Shown piece after piece: positions 1,318 to 29,300 of a stretch of DNA of 64,000 bases. How positions within the stretch are numbered: position 1 is the stretch's first letter; each line of letters opens with the position of its first letter. The notes beneath the pieces are model-generated. The model ran no database searches and was not told the origin of the DNA. It saw only the letters and a list, made by a program, of their open reading frames with translations. This DNA is from Escherichia coli. Lineage in GTDB: Bacteria; Pseudomonadota; Gammaproteobacteria; Enterobacterales; Enterobacteriaceae. Location: assembly GCF_048403405.1 (NCBI RefSeq), contig NZ_CP183129.1. One strand, written 5' to 3'. The translations under genes and the position numbers were made by a program.

Positions 1318-1448
1318 TCAAACGACTCGGGGTGCCCTTCTGCGTGAAGGCTGAGAAATACCCGTATCACCTGATCTGGATAATGCCAGCGTAGGGAAGT
1401 CACGGACCACCAGGTCATTGCTTCTTCACGTTATGGCAGGAGCAAACT
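1318..1448 (+). promoter_or_regulatory. TPP (thi-box) riboswitch in the thiM leader
   Basis: Sequence ...CGACUCGGGGUGCCCUUCUGCGUGAAGGCUGAGAAAUACCCGUAUCACCUGAUCUGGAUAAUGCCAGCGUAGGGAAGUC... matches the E. coli thiM TPP aptamer as recalled; it ends at the thiM SD and ATG (1449). Confidence 0.85.
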
Positions 1449-3034: not shown

Positions 3035-3098
3035 GCACCTTACTATAGCTGCTTTGGTTATTGTCAGTATTTGGCGCTGACATTCAGGGATGAAACCA

Positions 3099-3917
3099 AT
3101 GCAGCTGAGAATCATCAGTCGAAAAAAATTCACCGCTTTATTATGCGCTCTTGGGCTAATTTCCATCGTTGCAATTTATCCGCGTCAGACGGTGAATTTT
3201 TTCTACTCGACAGCAATTCAGATTAAAGACTACATCCACTTCTACGGTTATCGCCCGGTTAAATCTTTCGCTATTCGCATTCCTGCCAGTTACACCATTC
3301 ATGGTATTGATGTTTCACGCTGGCAGGAGCGAATCGACTGGCAGCGGGTGGCAAAAATGCGCGACAACGGTATTCTCTTGCAGTTTGCCTTTATCAAGGC
3401 GACGGAAGGCGAAAAGCTGGTGGACCCCTATTTTTCGCGTAACTGGCAACTAAGCCGCGAAAATGGCCTGCTGCGCGGGGCGTATCATTATTTCTCCCCG
3501 TCGGTATCCGCTTCAGTTCAGGCGCGATTATTTCTGCAAACGGTGGATTTTGCCCACGGCGATCTCCCTGCCGTGCTGGACGTAGAAGAACGGGGAAAAT
3601 TATCGGCAAAAGAATTACGCAAGCGGGTAAGTCAGTGGCTAAAAATGGTCGAAAAACGCACGGGAAAAAAGCCAATTATTTACTCAGGAGCCGTTTTTTA
3701 TCACACGAATCTGGCGGGCTATTTTAATGAATATCCGTGGTGGGTGGCTCACTATTATCAACGTCGCCCGGACAATGACGGCATGGCCTGGCGCTTCTGG
3801 CAGCATTCCGACCGTGGACAGGTAGATGGCATTAATGGTCCGGTGGATTTTAATGTGTTTAATGGCACGGTGGAGGAGTTGCAGGCATTCGTTGATGGGA
3901 TTAAAGAAACGCCTTAA
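3099..3917 (+). CDS. yegX: GH25-family lysozyme-like muramidase with N-terminal hydrophobic anchor
   Basis: ORF 3090..3917; matches E. coli YegX as recalled; start placed at the second Met (MQLRII) to give 272 aa, start uncertain. Confidence 0.75.
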   Translation: MQLRIISRKKFTALLCALGLISIVAIYPRQTVNFFYSTAIQIKDYIHFYGYRPVKSFAIRIPASYTIHGIDVSRWQERIDWQRVAKMRDNGILLQFAFIKATEGEKLVDPYFSRNWQLSRENGLLRGAYHYFSPSVSASVQARLFLQTVDFAHGDLPAVLDVEERGKLSAKELRKRVSQWLKMVEKRTGKKPIIYSGAVFYHTNLAGYFNEYPWWVAHYYQRRPDNDGMAWRFWQHSDRGQVDGINGPVDFNVFNGTVEELQAFVDGIKETP

Positions 3918-3968: not shown

Positions 3969-4715
3969 ATGGAACAAGCGCATACCCAGCTGATTGCCCA
4001 ACTGAACGAACGTATTTTAGCGGCGGATAACACGCCGCTTTATATTAAGTTTGCCGAAACGGTAAAAAATGCCGTGCGCAGCGGGGTGCTGGAGCATGGC
4101 AATATTTTACCCGGTGAGCGTGATTTAAGTCAGTTAACCGGCGTTTCGCGCATTACGGTGCGCAAGGCGATGCAGGCGCTGGAAGAAGAGGGCGTGGTGA
4201 CGCGTTCGCGTGGTTACGGTACGCAGATCAACAACATCTTCGAATACTCGTTGAAAGAAGCGCGAGGTTTTTCTCAGCAGGTGGTATTGCGCGGGAAAAA
4301 GCCCGATACGCTATGGGTTAACAAGCGTGTCGTGAAATGTCCCGAAGAAGTCGCGCAGCAGCTGGCGGTCGAAGCAGGAAGTGATGTCTTTTTGCTTAAG
4401 CGTATTCGCTATGTCGATGAAGAAGCGGTATCGATTGAGGAATCGTGGGTTCCGGCGCATTTAATTCATGATGTTGATGCCATCGGAATTTCTCTTTATG
4501 ACTACTTCCGCAGCCAGCACATTTACCCACAACGTACGCGTTCCCGCGTTAGCGCCCGGATGCCGGATGCCGAGTTTCAGTCACATATTCAGTTAGATAG
4601 CAAAATACCGGTGCTGGTGATCAAGCAAGTGGCGCTTGACCAACAGCAACGGCCTATTGAGTACAGCATCAGCCACTGTCGCAGCGATCTATACGTTTTT
4701 GTGTGCGAGGAGTAG
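3969..4715 (+). CDS. yegW: GntR/HutC-family transcriptional regulator, 248 aa
   Basis: ORF track; N-terminal HTH and C-terminal UTRA-like region; matches YegW as recalled; 3' end overlaps convergent yegV. Confidence 0.8.
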   Translation: MEQAHTQLIAQLNERILAADNTPLYIKFAETVKNAVRSGVLEHGNILPGERDLSQLTGVSRITVRKAMQALEEEGVVTRSRGYGTQINNIFEYSLKEARGFSQQVVLRGKKPDTLWVNKRVVKCPEEVAQQLAVEAGSDVFLLKRIRYVDEEAVSIEESWVPAHLIHDVDAIGISLYDYFRSQHIYPQRTRSRVSARMPDAEFQSHIQLDSKIPVLVIKQVALDQQQRPIEYSISHCRSDLYVFVCEE

Positions 4716-5654
4716 TTCCTCGCGCGTTGGCGCACAATCACCGCCCCGATGCCCGACAACCCACGACGCCACTGCATTGCCCAGTAATACGGCATCCGCC
4801 AGTGGCAGACCAGAGGCCAGCCCGGCAAGTACGCCACCTGCATGACTGTCGCCCGCCCCAATGGTGTCTACAACTTGCGTTGGAAATGCCGGAATGCAGC
4901 CAGAAGCGTCGTTGCTGAAATACCATGCGCCCTCTTTATCGAGACGAATGATCAACGGCGCGGCAAATTTCTCCTGCCATTGCTTGCCAAGTGTTGTTAT
5001 CTCTGCGGATAAAGCAAAACGTTCGGCGGCAATCTCAGCCTCCTGACGATTGAGTGACACTAAAGGTCGACAGGCCATGATCCGCGCCAGTAATGCGTCC
5101 GGGATATCGCCAATACGTGGGCCAAAATCGATAAACGGCGTCACGTCTTGCAGCTTTTCCAGCCATTCCACTAACAATTCGCCGCAGGGCGAGGCCAGTT
5201 GATAACCGGAAAAATAGAGCAGGCTGCCAGGTGCAACGGTTAATCGCGCCAACCATTGGCGATTCCACTGATTTTCCACACCGCTGAACGACATAAACGT
5301 GCGTTCACCATCCGGCTCAACCAGCGCCAGACACCAGCCGTTATCGCCTTCGGCGTTATCGATCAGGCTGATTAAGCCCTCTTTTGCCATCCGGTTGCGA
5401 ATAATCTCCGCCCACACGCCCTGACCGAGCGGCAAGGCATTACCCGCTTCGATGCCGAGGCGCTTTAACGCCACGACAATATTCAGTGCGCAGCCGCCAA
5501 CGTTAACGCTCTGCTGTTTCAGTTCGATATCGCACCCACGCCAGGGGAGGGCATAAGCGTCGGCGATCACATCAATGACCGCCGCGCCGACGACCATCAC
5601 CGACTGACGCGTGGTTAATTCAGGCAGCAGCGTGTGTAATCGAGCGCCGCTCAT
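4689..5654 (-). CDS. yegV: PfkB-family carbohydrate/nucleoside kinase, 321 aa
   Basis: ORF track; ribokinase-like motifs (DTIGAGD near C-terminus); matches YegV as recalled. Confidence 0.8.
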   Translation of the reverse strand: MSGARLHTLLPELTTRQSVMVVGAAVIDVIADAYALPWRGCDIELKQQSVNVGGCALNIVVALKRLGIEAGNALPLGQGVWAEIIRNRMAKEGLISLIDNAEGDNGWCLALVEPDGERTFMSFSGVENQWNRQWLARLTVAPGSLLYFSGYQLASPCGELLVEWLEKLQDVTPFIDFGPRIGDIPDALLARIMACRPLVSLNRQEAEIAAERFALSAEITTLGKQWQEKFAAPLIIRLDKEGAWYFSNDASGCIPAFPTQVVDTIGAGDSHAGGVLAGLASGLPLADAVLLGNAVASWVVGHRGGDCAPTREELLLAHKNV

Positions 5655-6655
5655 ACCGCCTCCCGTTGTTGACGATATTTCGCCAGCGCTGTGGCATAGC
5701 GGTTGAAATCAAGCTGATTTACCGCATCCAGTTCCGCCTTTAACGCAGGATCGATAGCGTTAACGCCATGCAACGCGCCACAAATTGCTGTCGCCATAGC
5801 ACCGATGGTGTCTGTGTCGCCGCCAAGGTTAGCGCACAGGACGGCGCAACGGTTCGGGGCGGTTTGTGCCAGTTCAACCAGCGCAATGGCGCACGGAACG
5901 GACTCAATAGTGCTGGTACCTGCGCCAACGACCTGGTAAAGCTGTTCGCTGGCGGATTCGGTGCCGTCGGCATTGCGCACAATTTTCAGCGCAATCTCCA
6001 GACGTGCTGCCAGTGAGGCGCTGAAGGTAGTGATGCGTTTTTGTTGAGCATGTCGCGCAATTGAAGGCAGTGAATCAACAATTGCTGACCAGCTTTCTCC
6101 GTCAATGGCACGAGAAATCGCCCATGCGATGACTACCGCCCCCGCAACCGCCAGATCGGATTTATGTGTCGGGCTGGAGGCCAGCGCCACATCATCAATA
6201 AAGGAATCAACATCACGCGCCGGAAGCAAACAACCTAATGGCGAGACGCGCATCGCTGCGCCGTTGGTCACGCCGTTATTTTCCAGTTCAGCAACGGGTT
6301 TACCGTCGCGAATGGCGTTAAGCGCAATCTTCGAGGTCGGACCTAGTACGTTTTTGTTAAAGGCGTCGAAACGCAGCGCCCAGTCGAGAATATTACGCCC
6401 AATCAGATCCGGATCGATCTTGCCTTCACGTTCCAGTAACGCATCTGCCAGACACAGCGCCATCGAGGTATCGTCGGTGAATTCGGCGCGGTTAAAATAA
6501 CAGGCTGCGTTATTCTCCTTTGGTCCAGGCAGAAAACGATCAATCCAGCCAAAGTGTGCTTTAACGCGGCTGCGTGGCCAAAGCTCGGAGGGCATCCCCA
6601 TCGCATCCCCTAACGCCTGCCCATAAAGAGCACCGAGAATACGTTCTGTTTTCAT
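5651..6655 (-). CDS. yegU: ADP-ribosylglycohydrolase-family protein, 334 aa
   Basis: ORF track; matches YegU as recalled; stop/start overlaps with yegV and yegT. Confidence 0.8.
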   Translation of the reverse strand: MKTERILGALYGQALGDAMGMPSELWPRSRVKAHFGWIDRFLPGPKENNAACYFNRAEFTDDTSMALCLADALLEREGKIDPDLIGRNILDWALRFDAFNKNVLGPTSKIALNAIRDGKPVAELENNGVTNGAAMRVSPLGCLLPARDVDSFIDDVALASSPTHKSDLAVAGAVVIAWAISRAIDGESWSAIVDSLPSIARHAQQKRITTFSASLAARLEIALKIVRNADGTESASEQLYQVVGAGTSTIESVPCAIALVELAQTAPNRCAVLCANLGGDTDTIGAMATAICGALHGVNAIDPALKAELDAVNQLDFNRYATALAKYRQQREAV

Positions 6656-7929
6656 TTAACTTCCCCTTGTGTCAACGCAATATCGCGATCATCGACCTTG
6701 ATAGCCGTAATTTCGTTGTCGGATTCGCGGAAAAAAATCATGAACAGCACGGCGATAATGGCAATCATCACCGCGCCAAAAGTCCACATCCCGGACCAGT
6801 TGAAAGTCAGTCCGTTTACCGGTTCCTGATAAGCGAACATCTTTTCCATCATCACACCGCCAAGACGATAGCCGAGCAAACTGCCGAAGCCCTGGCAGCA
6901 GAGCGTGATCAGCCCCTGCGCAGCGGTACGCATATGCACGGGGGCTTTTTTATCGACATAGATGTAAGCGGTAACGTAGTAAAAATCGTAACTTACTCCA
7001 TGCAGCAAAATGCCGAGGAACAGTAACGCGTAGGTGAAATATTCATCCGCACTACCGTAAATAAAGAAGCCATAGCGGATCGCAGCGGTGACCAGACCAA
7101 GTAATAATACCTTTTTGATACCAAAGCGTTTGGTAAAAAACGGCAATGCCAGCATAAAGAAGATTTCAGAAAACTGGCCGAGCGTCATCCAGCCAGTGGC
7201 GTTTTTCATACCGACTTCGGTCAGATAACCGTTGGCAAAGATGTAATAGAACGCCAGTGGCATCGCAAACAGGAATGAACAGAAGAAAAAGACGAGGAAG
7301 TTTTTATCGCGCAGCAGGATCAGCGCATCCAGGCCGAGCATGACTTTAATGTCCATTTTGCCGGTGCTTTTTGGCGGCGTGTCGGGCAGGAAAAACGCAA
7401 ACACACCGAGCAGAGCAGAACTTCCGGCGGTAATCAGCAGCGGGATGTTAGTCGGAGAGATATCGGCATAACCCAGCATTTGCGGCAAAAATCCACATGC
7501 CAGACCGGAGGCAATCCAGCCGATAGTGCCCATCACACGAATGCGTGGGAAATCACGCTCCACATCCGGCACGTTGGCAAAAGCGATACTGTTAGTCAGC
7601 GCAATGGTCGGCATATAGGTTAGCGAGTAGGCCAGCAGTAACGGGAAGAACCCGGCAAAAGTGGTCTGTTGCGCAGCGAAATACATCAGCGCCGCACCAG
7701 CGAACATCAATACCGCCAGCACTTTCTGCGCCGAGAAAAAGCGGTCAGTGATGGAGCCAACCAGAATTGGCGACAGGATCGCCGCAATGGCGGTACAGGC
7801 ATACGACCAGCCAATTTCTCCGGCACTAAAACCGCTTTTACTTAACCACAACCACAATGGCACAAACCACGCGCCCCAGATAAACCATTCAACAAACATC
7901 ATGAACGACAGCTTTGCTGTTGTTTTCAT
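6652..7929 (-). CDS. yegT: MFS nucleoside:H+ symporter-family transporter, 425 aa
   Basis: ORF track; polytopic membrane protein; matches YegT as recalled. Confidence 0.8.
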   Translation of the reverse strand: MKTTAKLSFMMFVEWFIWGAWFVPLWLWLSKSGFSAGEIGWSYACTAIAAILSPILVGSITDRFFSAQKVLAVLMFAGAALMYFAAQQTTFAGFFPLLLAYSLTYMPTIALTNSIAFANVPDVERDFPRIRVMGTIGWIASGLACGFLPQMLGYADISPTNIPLLITAGSSALLGVFAFFLPDTPPKSTGKMDIKVMLGLDALILLRDKNFLVFFFCSFLFAMPLAFYYIFANGYLTEVGMKNATGWMTLGQFSEIFFMLALPFFTKRFGIKKVLLLGLVTAAIRYGFFIYGSADEYFTYALLFLGILLHGVSYDFYYVTAYIYVDKKAPVHMRTAAQGLITLCCQGFGSLLGYRLGGVMMEKMFAYQEPVNGLTFNWSGMWTFGAVMIAIIAVLFMIFFRESDNEITAIKVDDRDIALTQGEVK

Positions 7930-8185
7930 CTTTTAATTCCTTCATGACAGGTAATGTAAGGTACGCGATGACAATACCATTTAATGATACCTTTTAAATA
8001 CCTTTGCGGTGAAAACTTGACCGCGGTAACATTTTTTCTGATGAATCGAGCCAACAGAAAACGCTGAAAAAACATCCAAAAGATGGAAAAACTCGCCTGT
8101 AAAGACCAGGATTATGATTGCCCGCAAAAGGTGGGCCAGGACAATCCATAGCCGATATCCAATCGGAATTTACGGGAGCATAGTA

Positions 8186-26389: not shown

Positions 26390-29300
26390 TTACGCCTCCT
26401 CTTCATGACGGGCAAAGCGGCTTTTGGTCCACAATGCCAGGCGGTCGAATAGCAGATAAATCACTGGCGTGGTAAACAGAGTCAGCACCTGGCTGACAAT
26501 CAGACCGCCGACCATGCCGATACCTAACGGACGACGCAGTTCCGCGCCGACCCCGGTACTCAACATCAGCGGCAGCGCGCCAAGCAGTGCCGCCAGAGTG
26601 GTCATCAGGATCGGACGAAAACGCAACAGACAAGCCTGGTAAATAGCTTCGCGCGGCGACATGCCTTGCTCGCGCTCAGCAGCCAGCGCGAAGTCGATCA
26701 TCATGATGGCGTTCTTCTTCACGATACCGATTAGCAAAATAATGCCGATAATTGCAATCACATCCAGTTCGCTACCGGCAATCATTAACGCCAGCAGTGC
26801 GCCGACCCCTGCGGTGGGTAGCGTCGAGAGAATGGTGATCGGGTGAATAAAGCTCTCGTACAGAATGCCGAGCACGATATACATCGCCACCACCGCCGCG
26901 ACAATCAGCCAGACAGTGCTGCCCAGCGCCGACTGGAAGGCGAGGGTGCTGCCCTGGAACTGCGTGGTGATATCCACTGGCAGATTCAGCGTCTTTTCGG
27001 TGTCCATAATCGCCTGCACCGCATCGCCCAGCGAATAGTTATCCGGTACGTTAAAGGAGATGGTCGTTACCGGGAACTGATCCAGATGGTTGATGGAAAG
27101 CGGCGCAAAACGCTGCTCAATTTTGGCAATTGAGCTTAACGGCACCACGCCACCGTCGCTGCTGGTCAGGCGAATGGTATCCAGCGCCGCAAGCCCTGGG
27201 GTATTTTCGGTATTGTGCTCCAGCACCACGCGATACTGGTTGGCCTGAGTATAAATGGTGGAAATCAGCCGCTGACCAAACGCGTTGTACAGGGCGTTAT
27301 CGACATCCGCCATACTGATCCCCAGACGGCTGGCGCTGTCCCTGTCGACATTGACATACGCCACCAGCCCTTTGTCCTGCCAGTCGCTGGAGACATCAGA
27401 AAGCTGTGGCAGCTGCTGGAGTTTTTCCATCAACTGTGGCACCCAGGTACTGAGCGCATCCAGTGACGTGGCCTGCAAGGTAAACTGGTACTGGGTGCGG
27501 CTGACCTGAGTATCGATGGTCAGGTCCTGCGTTGGTTGCAGGAAGAGATCGACGCCCGGCACTTTATCCACCGCCGTTTGCAGACGGGCGATGACTTTTT
27601 GCACCCGGTCATCTCGTTCATCCAGTGGTTTGAGGTTGATCTGCAAACGCGCACTGTTCAGCGACGGGTTAGTGCCATCAACGCCAACAAATGAGGTCAG
27701 GCTTTGCACTGCCGGATCCTGCAAAATCACATCCGCGACCTGGCGTTGCCGCTGGGCCATATTGGCAAAGGAGCTGGATTGCGGTGCCTGCAAAGTGCCC
27801 TGAATAATGCCGTTGTCCTGTACCGGGAAGAAACCTTTCGGAATGAATACCCACAAGAGAACACTAAGCAGCAGCGTGCTGAGTGCCACGCTTAAGGTCA
27901 GCCACGGATGATTCAGCACTTTCGCCAGTCCACGACCATAGGCGGCGATTATCCTGTCGAACATTTTCTCCGAGGCTCGGGAGAAGCGATTCTGTTTACG
28001 CAGCGACTCCTGGCTGAGCATCCGCGCGCACATCATCGGCGTCAGAGTCAGCGACACCACGGCTGAGATCAAAATCGCGACTGCCAGAGTAATAGCAAAT
28101 TCGCGGAACAGTCGCCCGACGATATCGCCCATAAATAGCAGTGGGATCAACACTGCAATCAGTGAGAAGGTCAGCGAGATAATGGTAAAGCCGATTTCAC
28201 CCGCGCCTTTGAGCGCCGCCGCCAACGGTTTTTCGCCTTTTTCGATATAGCGGGAAATGTTTTCGATCACCACGATGGCGTCATCGACCACAAATCCGGT
28301 GGCGATAGTTAACGCCATCAGCGTCAGGTTATTGATTGAAAAATCGAGAAACACCATGACCGCGAAGGTGCCGATTAACGACAGCGGCACTGCGACGCCG
28401 GGAATGATAGTCGCCGGAATATTACGCAAAAACAGGTAGATAATCATGACTACCAGCGCGATAGCCATCATCAATTCAAACTGAGTATCATCGACGGATG
28501 CGCGAATATTGGTGGTACGGTCAGAAAGTACCGTCACTTTTACCGATTTCGGCAAACTCTCGGTGAGTTGTGGCAGCATCTGCCGGATGCTGTCGGCGGT
28601 GGAGATAATGTTAGCACCGGGCTGGCGCTGAACATTCATCACGATGGCCTGTTCTTTGTTCGCCCACGCGCCGAGCCAGCTGTTTTCTGCGCCTTGTTCT
28701 ACGGTTGCGACATCGCCAAGACGAATCGGCGCGCCGTTCTGGTAGGCGATGATCAGCTGGCGATACTCTTCGGCGGATTGCATCTGGTCGTTCGCGGAAA
28801 GCGTGACCGCACGGGAAGGGCCGTCGAGGCTACCTTTTGCCGAGTTAACGTTAGCGCCGGTAATAGCGGTGCGCACGGTTTCGCTGGTCAGGCCGAGGGC
28901 GGCAATCGCCTGAGCGTTAAGTTTGACACGAACAGCCGGACGCTGGCCGCCGGAAAGCGTCACCAGGCCGACACCGGAAATCTGCGAGATTTTCTGCGCG
29001 ACGCGGGTTTCCACCATATCTTCCACTTGCGTCATTGGCATGGCGGTTGAGGTGACGGCGAGCGTCATGATTGGTGGATCTGCCGGGTTCACTTTGCTGT
29101 AAACCGGCGGGTTAGGCAGATCGCTCGGCAACAAGTTGGTCGCAGCGTTAATCGCGGCCTGCACTTCCTGCTCGGCGACATCCAGCGGTAATGTTAGCTG
29201 GAACTGTAAGGTGATAACTGACGCACCGCCGGAACTTTGCGACGACATCTGTTTCAGGCCAGACATCTGCCCAAACTGGCGTTCAAGCGGCGCGGTAACG

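Follow-up and report, generated by a model that had tools for sequence, protein, structure and literature searches.

The yeg locus and its conservation

Within the window (the whole 64-kb stretch of Escherichia coli DNA analysed here), four genes at positions 3969–7929 make up the conserved E. coli yegT-yegU-yegV operon and its repressor, yegW (Table 1). Several E. coli chromosomes match this 5-kb stretch at 100% identity, their RefSeq gene names being yegW, yegV, yegU and yegT; the locus is present in 5424 of 5426 complete E. coli genomes, and the four-gene order is retained in all 80 of the Enterobacterales loci examined. In Pectobacterium the four-gene block occurs without fbaB and thiD as neighbours, indicating that yegTUV-yegW moves as a unit.

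The gene identities offered by the original prediction—a GntR regulator, a PfkB kinase, an ADP-ribosylglycohydrolase (ARH)-fold enzyme and a nucleoside permease—are borne out by Pfam and TIGR00889 matches. The ORF coordinates likewise confirm the convergence of yegW upon the operon; the 27-bp overlap of the 3′ ends leaves no room for separate terminators, and yegV-yegW is one of a set of RNA-seq-supported excludon candidates (PMC12288877). The operon was also described as tightly coupled, in agreement with the ATGA overlap seen at both of its junctions, each with a Shine-Dalgarno-like motif (GGGGAAG or GGGAGG) immediately 5′. The label ‘uncharacterised’ no longer applies to YegW, now known as GgaR (PMC10819704), or to the structure of YegT (PMC11979927; PDB 8ZOJ), but otherwise stands.

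Table 1. Genes and sequence features of the yegTUV-yegW locus (window coordinates)
Feature	Position	Strand	Description	Basis
yegW (ggaR)	3969–4715	+	248 aa; GntR/HutC-type repressor of yegTUV	ORF and RefSeq name
yegV	4689–5654	-	321 aa; divergent ribokinase-like PfkB kinase, putative riboside 5′-kinase	
yegU	5651–6655	-	334 aa; ARH-fold binuclear-metal hydrolase, putative cleavage of C1′-aglycone bond	
yegT	6652–7929	-	425 aa; NHS-family MFS proton symporter	
yegT/yegU overlap	6652–6655	-	ATGA stop/start overlap (translational coupling)	Sequence read
yegU/yegV overlap	5651–5654	-	ATGA stop/start overlap (translational coupling)	Sequence read
yegV/yegW overlap	4689–4715	.	Convergent 3′ ends, 27-bp overlap	ORF coordinates and sequence
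Candidate primary YegW operator	7960–8005	-	Block AAAGGTATTTAAAAGGTAT..TGGTAT..GTACC	Conservation and motif count
Candidate secondary YegW operator	7107–7122	-	Intragenic, GGTATCAAAAAGGTAT, nt 808–823 of yegT	GGTAT-N6-GGTAT repeat as at promoter
Promoter-like site	7984–8013	-	TTCACC-18-TATCAT; overlaps candidate operator	Consensus scan, 9/12; weak pattern match only

YegT retains the ribose contacts of NupG

YegT scores 653.9 bits against the nucleoside permease family TIGR00889 (cut-off 446), and the protein encoded here differs from that of the crystal structure published in 2025 (PMC11979927; PDB 8ZOJ) only by the engineered K267A change and two strain substitutions. Like NupG and XapB (NHS family, TC 2.A.1.10) it has the 12-TM MFS fold, with an RMSD of ~1.6 Å to NupG, and keeps both the GxxxD proton site (D315) and the triad of residues that contact ribose (R136, T140 and E264), plus D323. 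Unlike those transporters, with which it shares 27% identity, its base contacts are changed: F143W, Q225A, N228Y, Y318H and F322Y (NupG contacts as given in PMC8042404). The original assignment as a nucleoside transporter needs narrowing; isothermal titration calorimetry found no significant binding of uridine, adenosine, cytidine or guanosine (PMC11979927), and uridine, cytidine, xanthosine and gemcitabine are not transported (PMC11241209).

YegU has an intact ARH metal site without the adenine contacts

The whole length of YegU aligns with PF03747 (ADP_ribosyl_GH; 3.9e-65), the nearest solved structure being the uncharacterised MJ1187 (3e-29), with ARH3, of low identity, more distant at ~6e-16. 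Aligned with ARH3, it retains every metal or catalytic residue that we examined—E41, T76-D77-D78, the NGxAMR loop and D314-x-D316-T317, so that the TDD and DxDT two-metal site common to ARH3, ARH1 and DraG is present—whilst H164, 99% conserved in the YegU family, falls in the aligned TH motif. Characterised ARH enzymes act at ribose C1″ (PMC9738213); hydrolysis at this position is the predicted chemistry. Unlike in ARH3, residues F143, S148 and Y149, which coordinate adenine and whose mutation inactivates that enzyme (PMC8319183), are missing; this points to a substrate of the type ribosyl-X rather than ADP-ribosyl-X. The remark in the original prediction that an ARH fold is unusual for a nucleoside hydrolase remains apt.

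Could YegU instead be a DraG/ARH1-like regulatory protein de-ADP-ribosylase, its kinase and transporter neighbours being incidental? The common fold and metal site would allow it, and DraG and Tri1 are indeed the top NCBIfam matches, but at scores far below the cut-offs (78.6 against 337 bits and 66.6 against 490, respectively), with no equivalog cut-off being reached. The absent adenine contacts, the translational coupling of the genes and the repeated fusion of ARH domains to PfkB kinases (see below) all speak against this reading; moreover, no ADP-ribosyltransferase partner is encoded in the locus and a PADLOC search for defence systems gave no matches. We consider it very improbable. Its genomic partners are a kinase and a transporter, not an ADP-ribosyltransferase, and the target of YegU is probably a small molecule.

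ARH-linked kinases lack the free-ribose contacts of ribokinase

The PF00294 (PfkB) match spans the whole of YegV (1e-55), but the protein reaches no NCBIfam equivalog, scoring 79.5 bits against a cut-off of 299.65 for ribokinase. When aligned to E. coli RbsK (EC 2.7.1.15), D16, the GG motif, N46, NxxE and D255 are kept, but N14, K43 and E143—residues contacting the C1-OH, ring oxygen and C5-OH—become Val, Cys and Ala. The same pattern extends across 53 ARH-linked kinases (YegV and 52 others): D16, G42, N46, N187/E190 and D255 (RbsK numbering) vary little or not at all, conserving the GG, NxxE and DTxGAGD motifs, the last with its catalytic Asp, as well as Asn46 and the Asp16 that binds the 2′,3′-diol. 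By contrast, the position of N14 is hydrophobic in type in all 53 (V, I, F, M, L or Y); that of K43 is Cys in 37 and Lys in none; and that of E143 is Glu in just five, mostly being Ala or another hydrophobic residue. Judged by these residues, the ARH-linked PfkB kinases are distinct from ribokinase, with the catalytic apparatus kept and the C1-OH and ring-oxygen contacts lost.

The corresponding residues of human ribokinase are a Glu that binds the C1-OH and a Lys that bridges ring oxygen and C5-OH; the K54A mutant is inactive, whilst E154A leaves ~58% of activity (PMC12621476). Loss of the Glu contact alone would then be compatible with free ribose as substrate. Taken across all 53 kinases, however, the loss of the residues that hold free ribose fits better with an intact riboside being phosphorylated first and then cleaved, making the order of uptake, cleavage and phosphorylation originally predicted the less likely one.

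In that original order, YegT would import the riboside, YegU would cleave it directly to free ribose and aglycone, and YegV would serve as a dedicated ribokinase; a scheme that we regard as unlikely, if worth keeping in mind. RbsK is already present in E. coli. A profile of the YegV family finds true ribokinases as its nearest relatives in the PDB (1e-46, against 1e-31 for adenosine kinases), and the retention of the diol-binding Asp, N46 and the catalytic Asp is equally in keeping with a ribokinase. Yet the Lys that is never found in these kinases is the one without which the human enzyme is dead, the ribokinase cut-off is missed by a wide margin, and in eight loci an AIRS-domain (PurM-superfamily) protein takes the place of PfkB, an odd substitution for a plain ribokinase. 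Some support for the scheme comes from the rus loci of Bacteroidetes, in which ribokinases occur alongside either ADP-ribosylglycohydrolases or nucleoside hydrolases (bioRxiv 10.1101/574913). These share with yeg a kinase, transporter, regulator and, in some species, an ADP-ribosylglycohydrolase among variable ribose-releasing enzymes, but they are ribose-induced, SusC/D-based systems of the polysaccharide-utilisation type whose genuine ribokinases are needed if the cells are to grow on ribose. Outer-membrane components are absent from the yeg module, as are the free-ribose contacts from its kinase.

The ARH–PfkB link extends far beyond enteric bacteria

The association of ARH and PfkB proteins, adjacent or fused, is ancient, tight and spread over many phyla. 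Of the 150 best representatives of YegU homologues at 50% identity, 11 carry ARH fused to PfkB, with either domain first, and precomputed Pfam annotation lists PF00294 with PF03747 for three fusions; a PfkB gene also adjoins the ARH gene in five of seven contexts of unfused homologues. An independent metagenome scan places PfkB within three genes of ARH at 11/11 enteric and 27/44 non-enteric loci, the 17 loci where it was not found within this distance including some affected by contig ends or crude ORF calling. The order of the two steps cannot be read from fusions and adjacency alone.

The transporter is exchanged between riboside-, nucleobase- and vitamin-type families. An NHS-family protein is found at 10 of the 11 enteric loci but at only four of the 44 non-enteric ones, where NCS1 (16), PnuC-like (9) and ECF/ABC (7) transporters also occur; 19 of the 44 include a GntR/UTRA regulator. 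Such company of nucleoside-, nucleobase- or riboside-type transporters and GntR/UTRA regulators sustains the proposal that the module handles a ribosylated compound. This far-reaching ARH–PfkB link and transporter swapping, together with the residue losses in the kinases and YegU and the GGTAT-N6-GGTAT repeats at the YegW-bound regions (below), are the findings new to this study.

The order ARH-PfkB-PnuC-like-GntR, seen in nine gut-metagenome loci with a transporter above the NCBIfam PnuC equivalog cut-off (97.6 bits against 42 for TIGR01528), raises a special case of the import–phosphorylate–cleave explanation, namely that a pyridine riboside (nicotinamide riboside, nicotinic acid riboside, or a reduced or oxidised derivative) is taken up and phosphorylated to its mononucleotide, from which YegU would release the pyridine base. 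The yeast nicotinamide-riboside carrier is itself an NCS1 protein, which would accord with this; on the other hand, members of the PnuC family also carry thiamine, riboflavin or deoxynucleosides, nicotinamide riboside is already served in E. coli by PnuC and NadR, and the module has no linked gene or riboswitch related to NAD. Whilst ARH1 and ARH3 can cleave the nicotinamide–ribose bond of alpha-NAD+, characterised ARH enzymes do not cleave beta-NAD+ (PMC9738213), and natural pyridine ribosides are beta-linked. We give this special case little likelihood.

YegW and its candidate operators

YegW combines an N-terminal GntR winged helix (7e-16) with a C-terminal UTRA ligand domain (3.5e-36), placing it in the HutC subfamily; its top NCBIfam matches are of the PhnF/HutC type, all under cut-off. 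Work published in 2024 identified yegTUV as its sole repression target by ChIP-chip, EMSA and Northern analysis, with deletion of yegW derepressing the operon ~30-fold (PMC10819704).

Upstream of yegT we see a block that is almost invariant in 78 distinct enterobacterial upstream sequences, including those of Pectobacterium, whilst its flanks vary. This candidate primary operator holds three direct GGTAT half-sites (7974–8002) plus an inverted GTACC; across the 64 kb, GGTAT-N(4–12)-GGTAT occurs four times against 0.40 expected. The 190-bp probe best bound by GgaR covers it, and the weaker probe (nt 571–869 of yegT) contains the candidate secondary operator (PMC10819704), so that both published binding regions carry a GGTAT-N6-GGTAT repeat. 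A single target, strong derepression and a repeat at both binding regions fit regulation as an inducible operon.

The same study (Saito et al. 2024) proposed that YegW senses ADP-glucose and that YegTUV import, make or raise ADP-glucose, thereby promoting glycogen. In vitro, 10–100 μM ADP-glucose, but neither ADP nor glucose, detached YegW from the fbaB/yegT probe; deletion of yegW raised glycogen two- to threefold and slowed growth on glucose minimal medium; and yegV appears in a list of low-glycogen deletion mutants (PMC10819704). ADP-glucose, the sole reported effector, and glycogen level, the sole phenotype, are not predicted by a riboside model. That said, the authors themselves term the link ‘somewhat ambiguous’ (PMC10819704), YegU is without the ARH3 adenine-binding residues, and ADP-glucose lacks the ribose C1″ bond cut by characterised ARH enzymes (PMC9738213). 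In our 55 loci the recurrent neighbours are GntR regulators and transporters of riboside, nucleobase or vitamin type, with no glycogen genes among the annotated neighbour clusters (0–12, 15, 16, 21, 46, 48). The extra glycogen could follow indirectly from 30-fold overexpression, for instance through a drain of AMP, an inhibitor of GlgC. A dedicated ADP-glucose module hence seems to us rather improbable.

A proposed import–phosphorylate–cleave pathway

Together, the residue losses in the kinase and YegU, the ARH–PfkB linkage and the operator findings favour import, phosphorylation and cleavage, as in PsuK/PsuG, over import, cleavage and phosphorylation. We put at about even the chance that yegTUV-yegW is a repressor-controlled module for the utilisation or salvage of a non-canonical riboside by this route. 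Gene order, domains, residue patterns, ARH–PfkB adjacency and fusions and the operator motif are observed, and repression by YegW and the failure of canonical nucleosides with YegT are published; what we infer is which reaction each protein performs, whether kinase or hydrolase acts first, and what the substrate is, probably a non-canonical riboside and possibly alpha-linked. The proton symporter YegT, its ribose residues kept and its aglycone pocket remodelled relative to NupG, would import the riboside. YegV, derived from ribokinase and retaining the diol-binding Asp, would phosphorylate the 5′-OH of the intact molecule. Two-metal YegU would then hydrolyse the riboside 5′-phosphate at the C1′-aglycone bond to give ribose 5-phosphate and free aglycone. 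YegW, bound to the GGTAT-N6-GGTAT repeats at the promoter and inside yegT, would keep the operon nearly silent until released by a nucleotide-like ligand. The yegTUV-yegW module presents a testable orphan pathway.

A precedent exists in the E. coli pseudouridine system psuK-psuG-psuT (yeiC-yeiN-yeiM), of similar size, which likewise joins a nucleoside-family transporter and a PfkB kinase to an enzyme that breaks the ribose C1′–base bond; as described in PMC9247573 and PMC9061257, the kinase PsuK acts first and the glycosidase PsuG then works on the 5′-phosphorylated compound, giving ribose 5-phosphate. The components differ: the 60 top PDB matches to the YegV-family profile include no pseudouridine kinase, the yeg bond-breaker has the ARH fold (PF03747) rather than that of PsuG, its transporter belongs to the NHS and not the CNT family, and its regulator is a GntR protein of the HutC type.

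Organisation and conservation of the yeg locus

The module consists of the yegT-yegU-yegV operon on the minus strand and the convergent repressor gene yegW, with ORF calling placing all four genes exactly where the original prediction had put them. Sequence between positions 3500 and 8500 is 100% identical to several complete E. coli genomes and finds a match in 5424 of 5426; the cluster is flanked, in the RefSeq annotation, by thiMD and yegX to one side and by fbaB and gatYZABC to the other. Both junctions of the operon (yegT/yegU and yegU/yegV) are ATGA overlaps, each with a Shine-Dalgarno-like purine run closely upstream. At its distal end, the coding 3' ends of yegV and yegW overlap by 27 bp (4689-4715), such that full-length transcripts of the two genes are necessarily antisense to each other; the pair is also found among the RNA-seq-supported convergent-overlap 'excludon' candidates (PMC12288877).

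Features of the yeg locus and its surroundings
Feature	Position	Strand	Remarks
TPP riboswitch	1318-1414	+	71.8 bits (gathering score 54.3); also annotated in RefSeq
yegX	3090-3917	+	glycoside hydrolase family 25 (GH25); between thiD and yegW
yegW	3969-4715	+	ORF; RefSeq: GntR-family regulator
yegV	4689-5654	-	ORF; RefSeq: carbohydrate kinase family protein
yegU	5651-6655	-	ORF; RefSeq: ADP-ribosylglycohydrolase family protein
yegT	6652-7929	-	ORF; RefSeq: nucleoside permease
Candidate intragenic repeat, GGTATCAAAAAGGTAT	7107-7122		nt 808-823 of yegT; inside the published weaker probe
Candidate YegW operator block, AAAGGTATTTAAAAGGTAT..TGGTAT..GTACC	7960-8005	-	nearly invariant; flanks variable
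Promoter-like match, TTCACC-18-TATCAT	8013-7984		weak match; overlaps the candidate operator
Fourth GGTAT..GGTAT match, GGTATTTTCGGTAT	27200-27213	+	spacing N4, not N6; far from the yeg locus

The order yegT-yegU-yegV, with yegW convergent to it, is invariant in 80 loci from different species of Enterobacterales. In Pectobacterium the module is found without fbaB or thiD as neighbours, indicating that it travels as a unit. Across the same enterobacterial loci (L002-L081), identity to the E. coli proteins ranges from 84 to 96% for YegT, 77 to 91% for YegU and 79 to 94% for YegW; YegV, at 63-83%, diverges much faster than the other three.

We considered yegX as a fifth member of the module and rejected it: being confined, among loci L002-L081, to those of Escherichia, with thiD directly abutting yegW in Citrobacter, Enterobacter, Klebsiella, Raoultella and others, it represents a recent insertion. 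Thiamine, suggested as a clue to the substrate by the adjacent thiM-thiD genes and the TPP riboswitch upstream of them, was similarly set aside, because Pectobacterium and all of the non-enteric loci lack this neighbourhood. A role in defence was also rejected, with a PADLOC search for defence systems returning no matches.

YegU as an ADP-ribosylglycohydrolase-fold enzyme

The only Pfam family that YegU matches is PF03747 (the ARH fold), at 3.9e-65 and over model positions 1-285 of 287. Its nearest relative of solved structure is the uncharacterised MJ1187 (3e-29), followed by ARH3 (~6e-16). Similarity at the equivalog level is not reached with either of the protein ADP-ribosyl-arginine hydrolases DraG (78.6 bits vs 337) and Tri1 (66.6 vs 490), the match in each case being limited to the N-terminal half. 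On alignment with ARH3, the metal ligands T76-D77-D78 and D314-x-D316-T317 coincide with T60-D61-D62 and D280-x-D282-T283 of YegU, which also keeps the equivalents of E41, the NGxAMR loop and the TH motif. Across 107 YegU homologues, conservation is at least 94% for the TDD, TH and DxDT motifs and at least 95% for three residues (Thr, Gly and Met) of the NGxAMR-region loop; given this conservation, YegU should be an active two-metal ribosyl hydrolase.

The residues with which ARH3 contacts adenine are absent from YegU: F143 is replaced by Asn, S148 falls within a three-residue deletion and Y149 is replaced by Val. In ARH3 itself, the F143L and S148A substitutions almost abolish activity (PMC8319183). 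As the means of holding adenine are missing, an ADP-ribosyl-X compound is an unlikely substrate for YegU, with ribosyl-X or 5-phosphoribosyl-X the more likely. The ARH enzymes characterised to date are strictly specific for the alpha-anomer: they cleave alpha-ADP-ribosyl-arginine and alpha-NAD+ and leave the corresponding beta compounds intact (PMC9738213).

A ribokinase-like clade with altered sugar contacts

YegV, listed in a 2025 preprint as an uncharacterised sugar kinase, matches PF00294 (PfkB) at 1e-55; its GG (G53-G54), NxxE (N202-x-x-E205) and DTxGAGD (D263-T-I-G-A-G-D269; anion hole and catalytic Asp) motifs show little or no variation in the clade of ARH-linked kinases to which it belongs. 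It does not qualify as a ribokinase equivalog (TIGR02152: 79.5 bits vs a cut-off of 299.65), and an alignment of 53 ARH-linked kinases, including YegV, against E. coli ribokinase (RbsK, whose numbering is used here) shows where the differences lie. D16, which binds the 2',3'-diol, and N46 are invariant; near-invariance (52 of 53) is seen for G42, for N187 and E190 of the NxxE motif, and for the catalytic D255. The position of N14 (V26 in YegV) holds a hydrophobic residue throughout (V, I, F, M, L or Y), that of K43 (Cys in YegV) is Cys in 37 of the 53 and Lys in none, and that of E143 (Ala in YegV) is Glu in only five. In human ribokinase, K54 (= K43) bridges the ring oxygen and the C5 hydroxyl, with K54A essentially inactive, and E154 (= E143) hydrogen-bonds the C1 hydroxyl (PMC12621476); since the E154A mutant retains ~58% of activity (PMC12621476), loss of the lysine is the stronger argument of the two.

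Compared with structures in the PDB, a profile of the ARH-linked kinases lies closest to ribokinases (1e-46), with adenosine kinases at 1e-31. We read the YegV clade as ribokinase-derived kinases of a distinctive 'GGC' type that would grip a ribofuranose by its 2',3'-diol and phosphorylate O5. The site taken by the C1 hydroxyl of free ribose would in these enzymes be a hydrophobic space, as a kinase acting on an intact riboside requires.

The transporter YegT

By sequence, YegT belongs to the NHS (nucleoside:H+ symporter) family, meeting the curated nucleoside permease model TIGR00889 over its full length (653.9 bits vs a cut-off of 446.1). None of YegU, YegV and YegW reaches an NCBIfam equivalog cut-off; the three are given no specific function by any curated family. 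In our alignment, in agreement with published work (PMC8042404, PMC11979927), the ribose contacts of NupG (R136, T140 and E264) are identical in YegT, and the GxxxD proton-coupling motif of TM10 is kept (G311-x3-D315, aligned with G319-x3-D323 of NupG). The contacts to the base have changed, as previously noted (PMC8042404); we find F143W, Q225A, N228Y, Y318H and F322Y.

A crystal structure of YegT is available at 3.1 Å (PDB: 8ZOJ; PMC11979927). For uridine, adenosine, cytidine and guanosine, isothermal titration calorimetry showed no significant binding (PMC11979927), and uptake assays found that gemcitabine, xanthosine, uridine and cytidine are not transported (PMC11241209); at least two groups state explicitly that the natural substrate is still to be found. 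In Salmonella Typhi, yegT is reported to be one of the transporter genes accumulating truncation mutations (PMC9241588), which would fit a host-restricted lineage that is losing a function in the use of gut nutrients.

Recurrence of the ARH-PfkB pair beyond enteric bacteria

A search with YegU of all 1.84 billion representative proteins returned 1641 matches at E<=1e-10. Among the best 150 of these are 11 proteins of ~600-760 amino acids in which an ARH and a PfkB domain are fused, in both possible orders; precomputed Pfam annotation lists PF00294 and PF03747 together for three of the 11. A twelfth fusion among the best 150 is an ARH-ARH tandem (P0160, a 692-aa representative protein). For seven unfused homologues, 37-56% identical to YegU, we inspected the gene context: a PfkB gene adjoins the ARH gene in five, an NCS1 (Transp_cyt_pur) permease is present in four, and a GntR/UTRA regulator and a nearby PNP_UDP_1 phosphorylase in two each.

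An independent scan of metagenomes, using a profile of distant homologues, gave 80 loci whose ORFs were called and clustered; 55 of these carry at least four genes (11 enteric, 44 others). The enteric loci hold PfkB and GntR genes in 11 of 11 and an NHS transporter in 10 of 11. In the non-enteric set, PfkB lies within three genes of the ARH gene in 27 of 44 loci, a transporter in 34 and a GntR regulator in 19. The transporters themselves are of several types (NCS1 in 16 of the 44 loci, PnuC-like in nine, ECF/ABC in seven and NHS in four), the PnuC-like protein scoring 97.6 bits on TIGR01528 (cut-off 42.45). Three of the NCS1-type loci are Pseudomonas-like, judging by the RgsA sRNA gene that adjoins them; the pair is found in Enterobacterales, in Pseudomonas-type loci and in human-gut metagenomes. 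As the linkage recurs while the transporter family varies, the conserved core of the module is the ARH-PfkB pair, to which are added a small-molecule importer that can be exchanged and, in most cases, a regulator of the HutC type.

In two of the related loci a further, divergent ARH paralogue adjoins the pair (L094:1815-3209 and L099:7511-8500). In another (L090:337-12625), ARH, PfkB and NCS1 genes sit beside a nucleoside phosphorylase, an amidohydrolase and a second NCS1 permease, together with genes similar to those for glyoxylate carboligase, hydroxypyruvate isomerase, tartronate-semialdehyde reductase and glycerate kinase, a neighbourhood of purine/ureide catabolism.

YegW, its candidate operator and the glycogen phenotype

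YegW is a GntR-family regulator of the HutC subfamily, with an N-terminal winged helix (GntR, residues 29-87, 7e-16) and a C-terminal UTRA effector domain (residues 108-242, 3.5e-36). Renamed GgaR by Saito et al. (2024; PMC10819704), it is present at ~20-30 molecules per cell and binds a single genomic region, strongly at the fbaB/yegT spacer and weakly within nt 571-869 of yegT, repressing the 3.3-kb yegTUV transcript ~30-fold (PMC10819704).

Alignment of 78 distinct enterobacterial yegT upstream regions revealed a block, also present in Pectobacterium, that is far better conserved than its flanks (see table). Within the 64-kb window the pattern GGTAT-N(4-12)-GGTAT occurs four times (0.40 expected): as two overlapping copies inside this block (7974-8002), once inside yegT and once at a distance. 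The distant match is probably due to chance; a second YegW target is absent from the published ChIP-chip data (PMC10819704). Since the repeat is found at both of the mapped YegW-bound regions, is conserved across genera, and PMC10819704 gives no operator motif, we propose GGTAT-N6-GGTAT direct repeats as the candidate YegW operator. A riboswitch, which would have revealed the metabolite, was found neither in the yegT leader nor directly upstream of the ARH-PfkB module in 67 related loci, where those that do occur serve neighbouring genes (guanidine-I, Moco, T-box and, at a TonB receptor gene in L146, one cobalamin).

Deletion of yegW raises glycogen two- to three-fold and slows growth on glucose minimal medium, and 10-100 uM ADP-glucose displaces the regulator from DNA where ADP and glucose do not (PMC10819704). 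This ligand result is real, and has led to ADP-glucose and glycogen being viewed as the business of the operon. The same study, however, demonstrates an effect on YegW rather than activity of the yegTUV enzymes on ADP-glucose, and reports no clear function for yegT, yegU or yegV (PMC10819704); ADP-ribose and riboside phosphates lie outside the set of effectors tried, YegU is without an adenine pocket, and glycogen genes number zero among the annotated recurrent neighbours. We therefore think it very unlikely that this is the primary function; the glycogen phenotype may instead arise indirectly, through changes in nucleotide pools under 30-fold overexpression.

A proposed kinase-first riboside pathway

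We favour a scheme in which YegT would import a non-canonical riboside, YegV would phosphorylate it at O5', YegU would cleave the riboside 5'-phosphate to ribose 5-phosphate and an aglycone, and YegW would repress the operon until some pathway ligand appears; taken as a whole, we rate its chances as even. The original prediction had also envisaged uptake, cleavage and phosphorylation, but with the riboside cleaved first and the ribose phosphorylated thereafter. The ribokinase-like profile of the ARH-linked kinases would suit that order, as would the pairing of ribokinases with ADP-ribosylglycohydrolases in ribose-utilisation loci of Bacteroidetes (bioRxiv 10.1101/574913). It is the loss of free-ribose contacts from YegV-type kinases that argues against it, and from which we infer that phosphorylation comes before bond cleavage; the reverse order strikes us as unlikely.

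Kinase-first catabolism has a precedent in E. coli: the PfkB kinase PsuK acts first on pseudouridine, with PsuG then cleaving the 5'-phosphate (PMC9247573, PMC9061257). The yeg operon likewise combines a nucleoside transporter, a PfkB kinase and a putative C1'-bond-cleaving enzyme, and by this analogy the evidence supports a pathway of the pseudouridine type. YegU, however, has the ARH fold and is not of the PsuG (pseudouridine-5'-phosphate glycosidase) family; as it matches PF03747 alone, the yeg pathway would be an analogue of PsuK/PsuG and not a member. Its variant features would be the ARH-fold hydrolase, the 'GGC' ribokinase-derived kinase and a module that is widespread and sometimes fused.

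The description of the module as 'uncharacterised' holds for the enzymatic function of yegTUV but not for the locus as such, for YegW or for the structure of YegT, all of which were already known. In the literature on the function of yegT, yegU and yegV, or on ARH-PfkB pairs, we found no paper that assigns a substrate; work on the same topic comprises the GgaR paper, the YegT/NupG structure papers, the gemcitabine-transport paper and incidental mentions only. To this the present analysis adds the Rosetta-stone fusions, the exchange of one transporter family for another, a residue signature for the kinase, the loss of the adenine pocket from YegU and the candidate operator repeat. Although the yeg genes are part of the core genome of the best-studied of all bacteria, three of the four lack a known substrate: a genuine and tractable gap in the E. 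coli gene catalogue, for which there are now specific predictions. Were the chemistry true, it would add a new enzyme fold to nucleoside/riboside catabolism, give a small-molecule metabolic role to the ARH family (whose members are known chiefly as enzymes that undo the ADP-ribosylation of proteins), explain or reinterpret the glycogen phenotype of yegW mutants, and possibly reveal the use by gut bacteria of an overlooked class of ribosides.

Candidate ribosides

Nine gut loci with the order ARH-PfkB-PnuC-like-GntR make a pyridine riboside a lead worth recording. Elsewhere, nicotinamide riboside is among the compounds carried by NCS1 transporters. The pyridine ribosides found in nature, however, have a beta linkage. 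Against them stands the rejection of beta-NAD+ by characterised ARH enzymes (PMC9738213).

A bolder proposal, which we put forward tentatively and consider improbable, is that alpha-linked ribosides, such as alpha-ribazole or other cobamide lower-ligand ribosides set free in the gut, would have in YegTUV and relatives the first pathway dedicated to them; YegV would then act as a 5'-kinase on the alpha-riboside and YegU as the hydrolase of its 5'-phosphate. The alpha-specificity of characterised ARH enzymes speaks for it, as does YegT, which keeps its ribose contacts yet ignores all beta-nucleosides tried. E. coli ribokinase binds the alpha-furanose, with N14 contacting its C1 hydroxyl; the YegV clade has lost at least one ribokinase contact to this group (E143, whose human equivalent binds it), with small hydrophobic residues largely taking the place of both N14 and E143. 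Unless the alpha-riboside reading proves true, the pathway would be unsurprising in kind.

Also in its favour is a branch of eight loci (L145-L150, L161 and L163; e.g. L146:2640-2820, minus strand) with features resembling those of corrinoid-uptake loci. Here the ARH protein is 35-41% identical to YegU, its gene is accompanied by ECF components S, T and A, and PfkB is replaced by a 269-aa AIRS-N-domain (PurM-superfamily) protein, cluster c11. A known alpha-ribazole kinase is CblS. Cluster c11 has no NCBIfam match, and the names given to its homologues go no further than 'AIR synthase related' or 'selenophosphate synthetase-related'. Counting only where flanking sequence was available, several loci of the branch also carry TonB receptors (best match BtuB, below cut-off), a beta-propeller protein or a BtuF/IsdE-like binding protein; it is one such BtuB-like receptor gene that the cobalamin riboswitch of L146 precedes.
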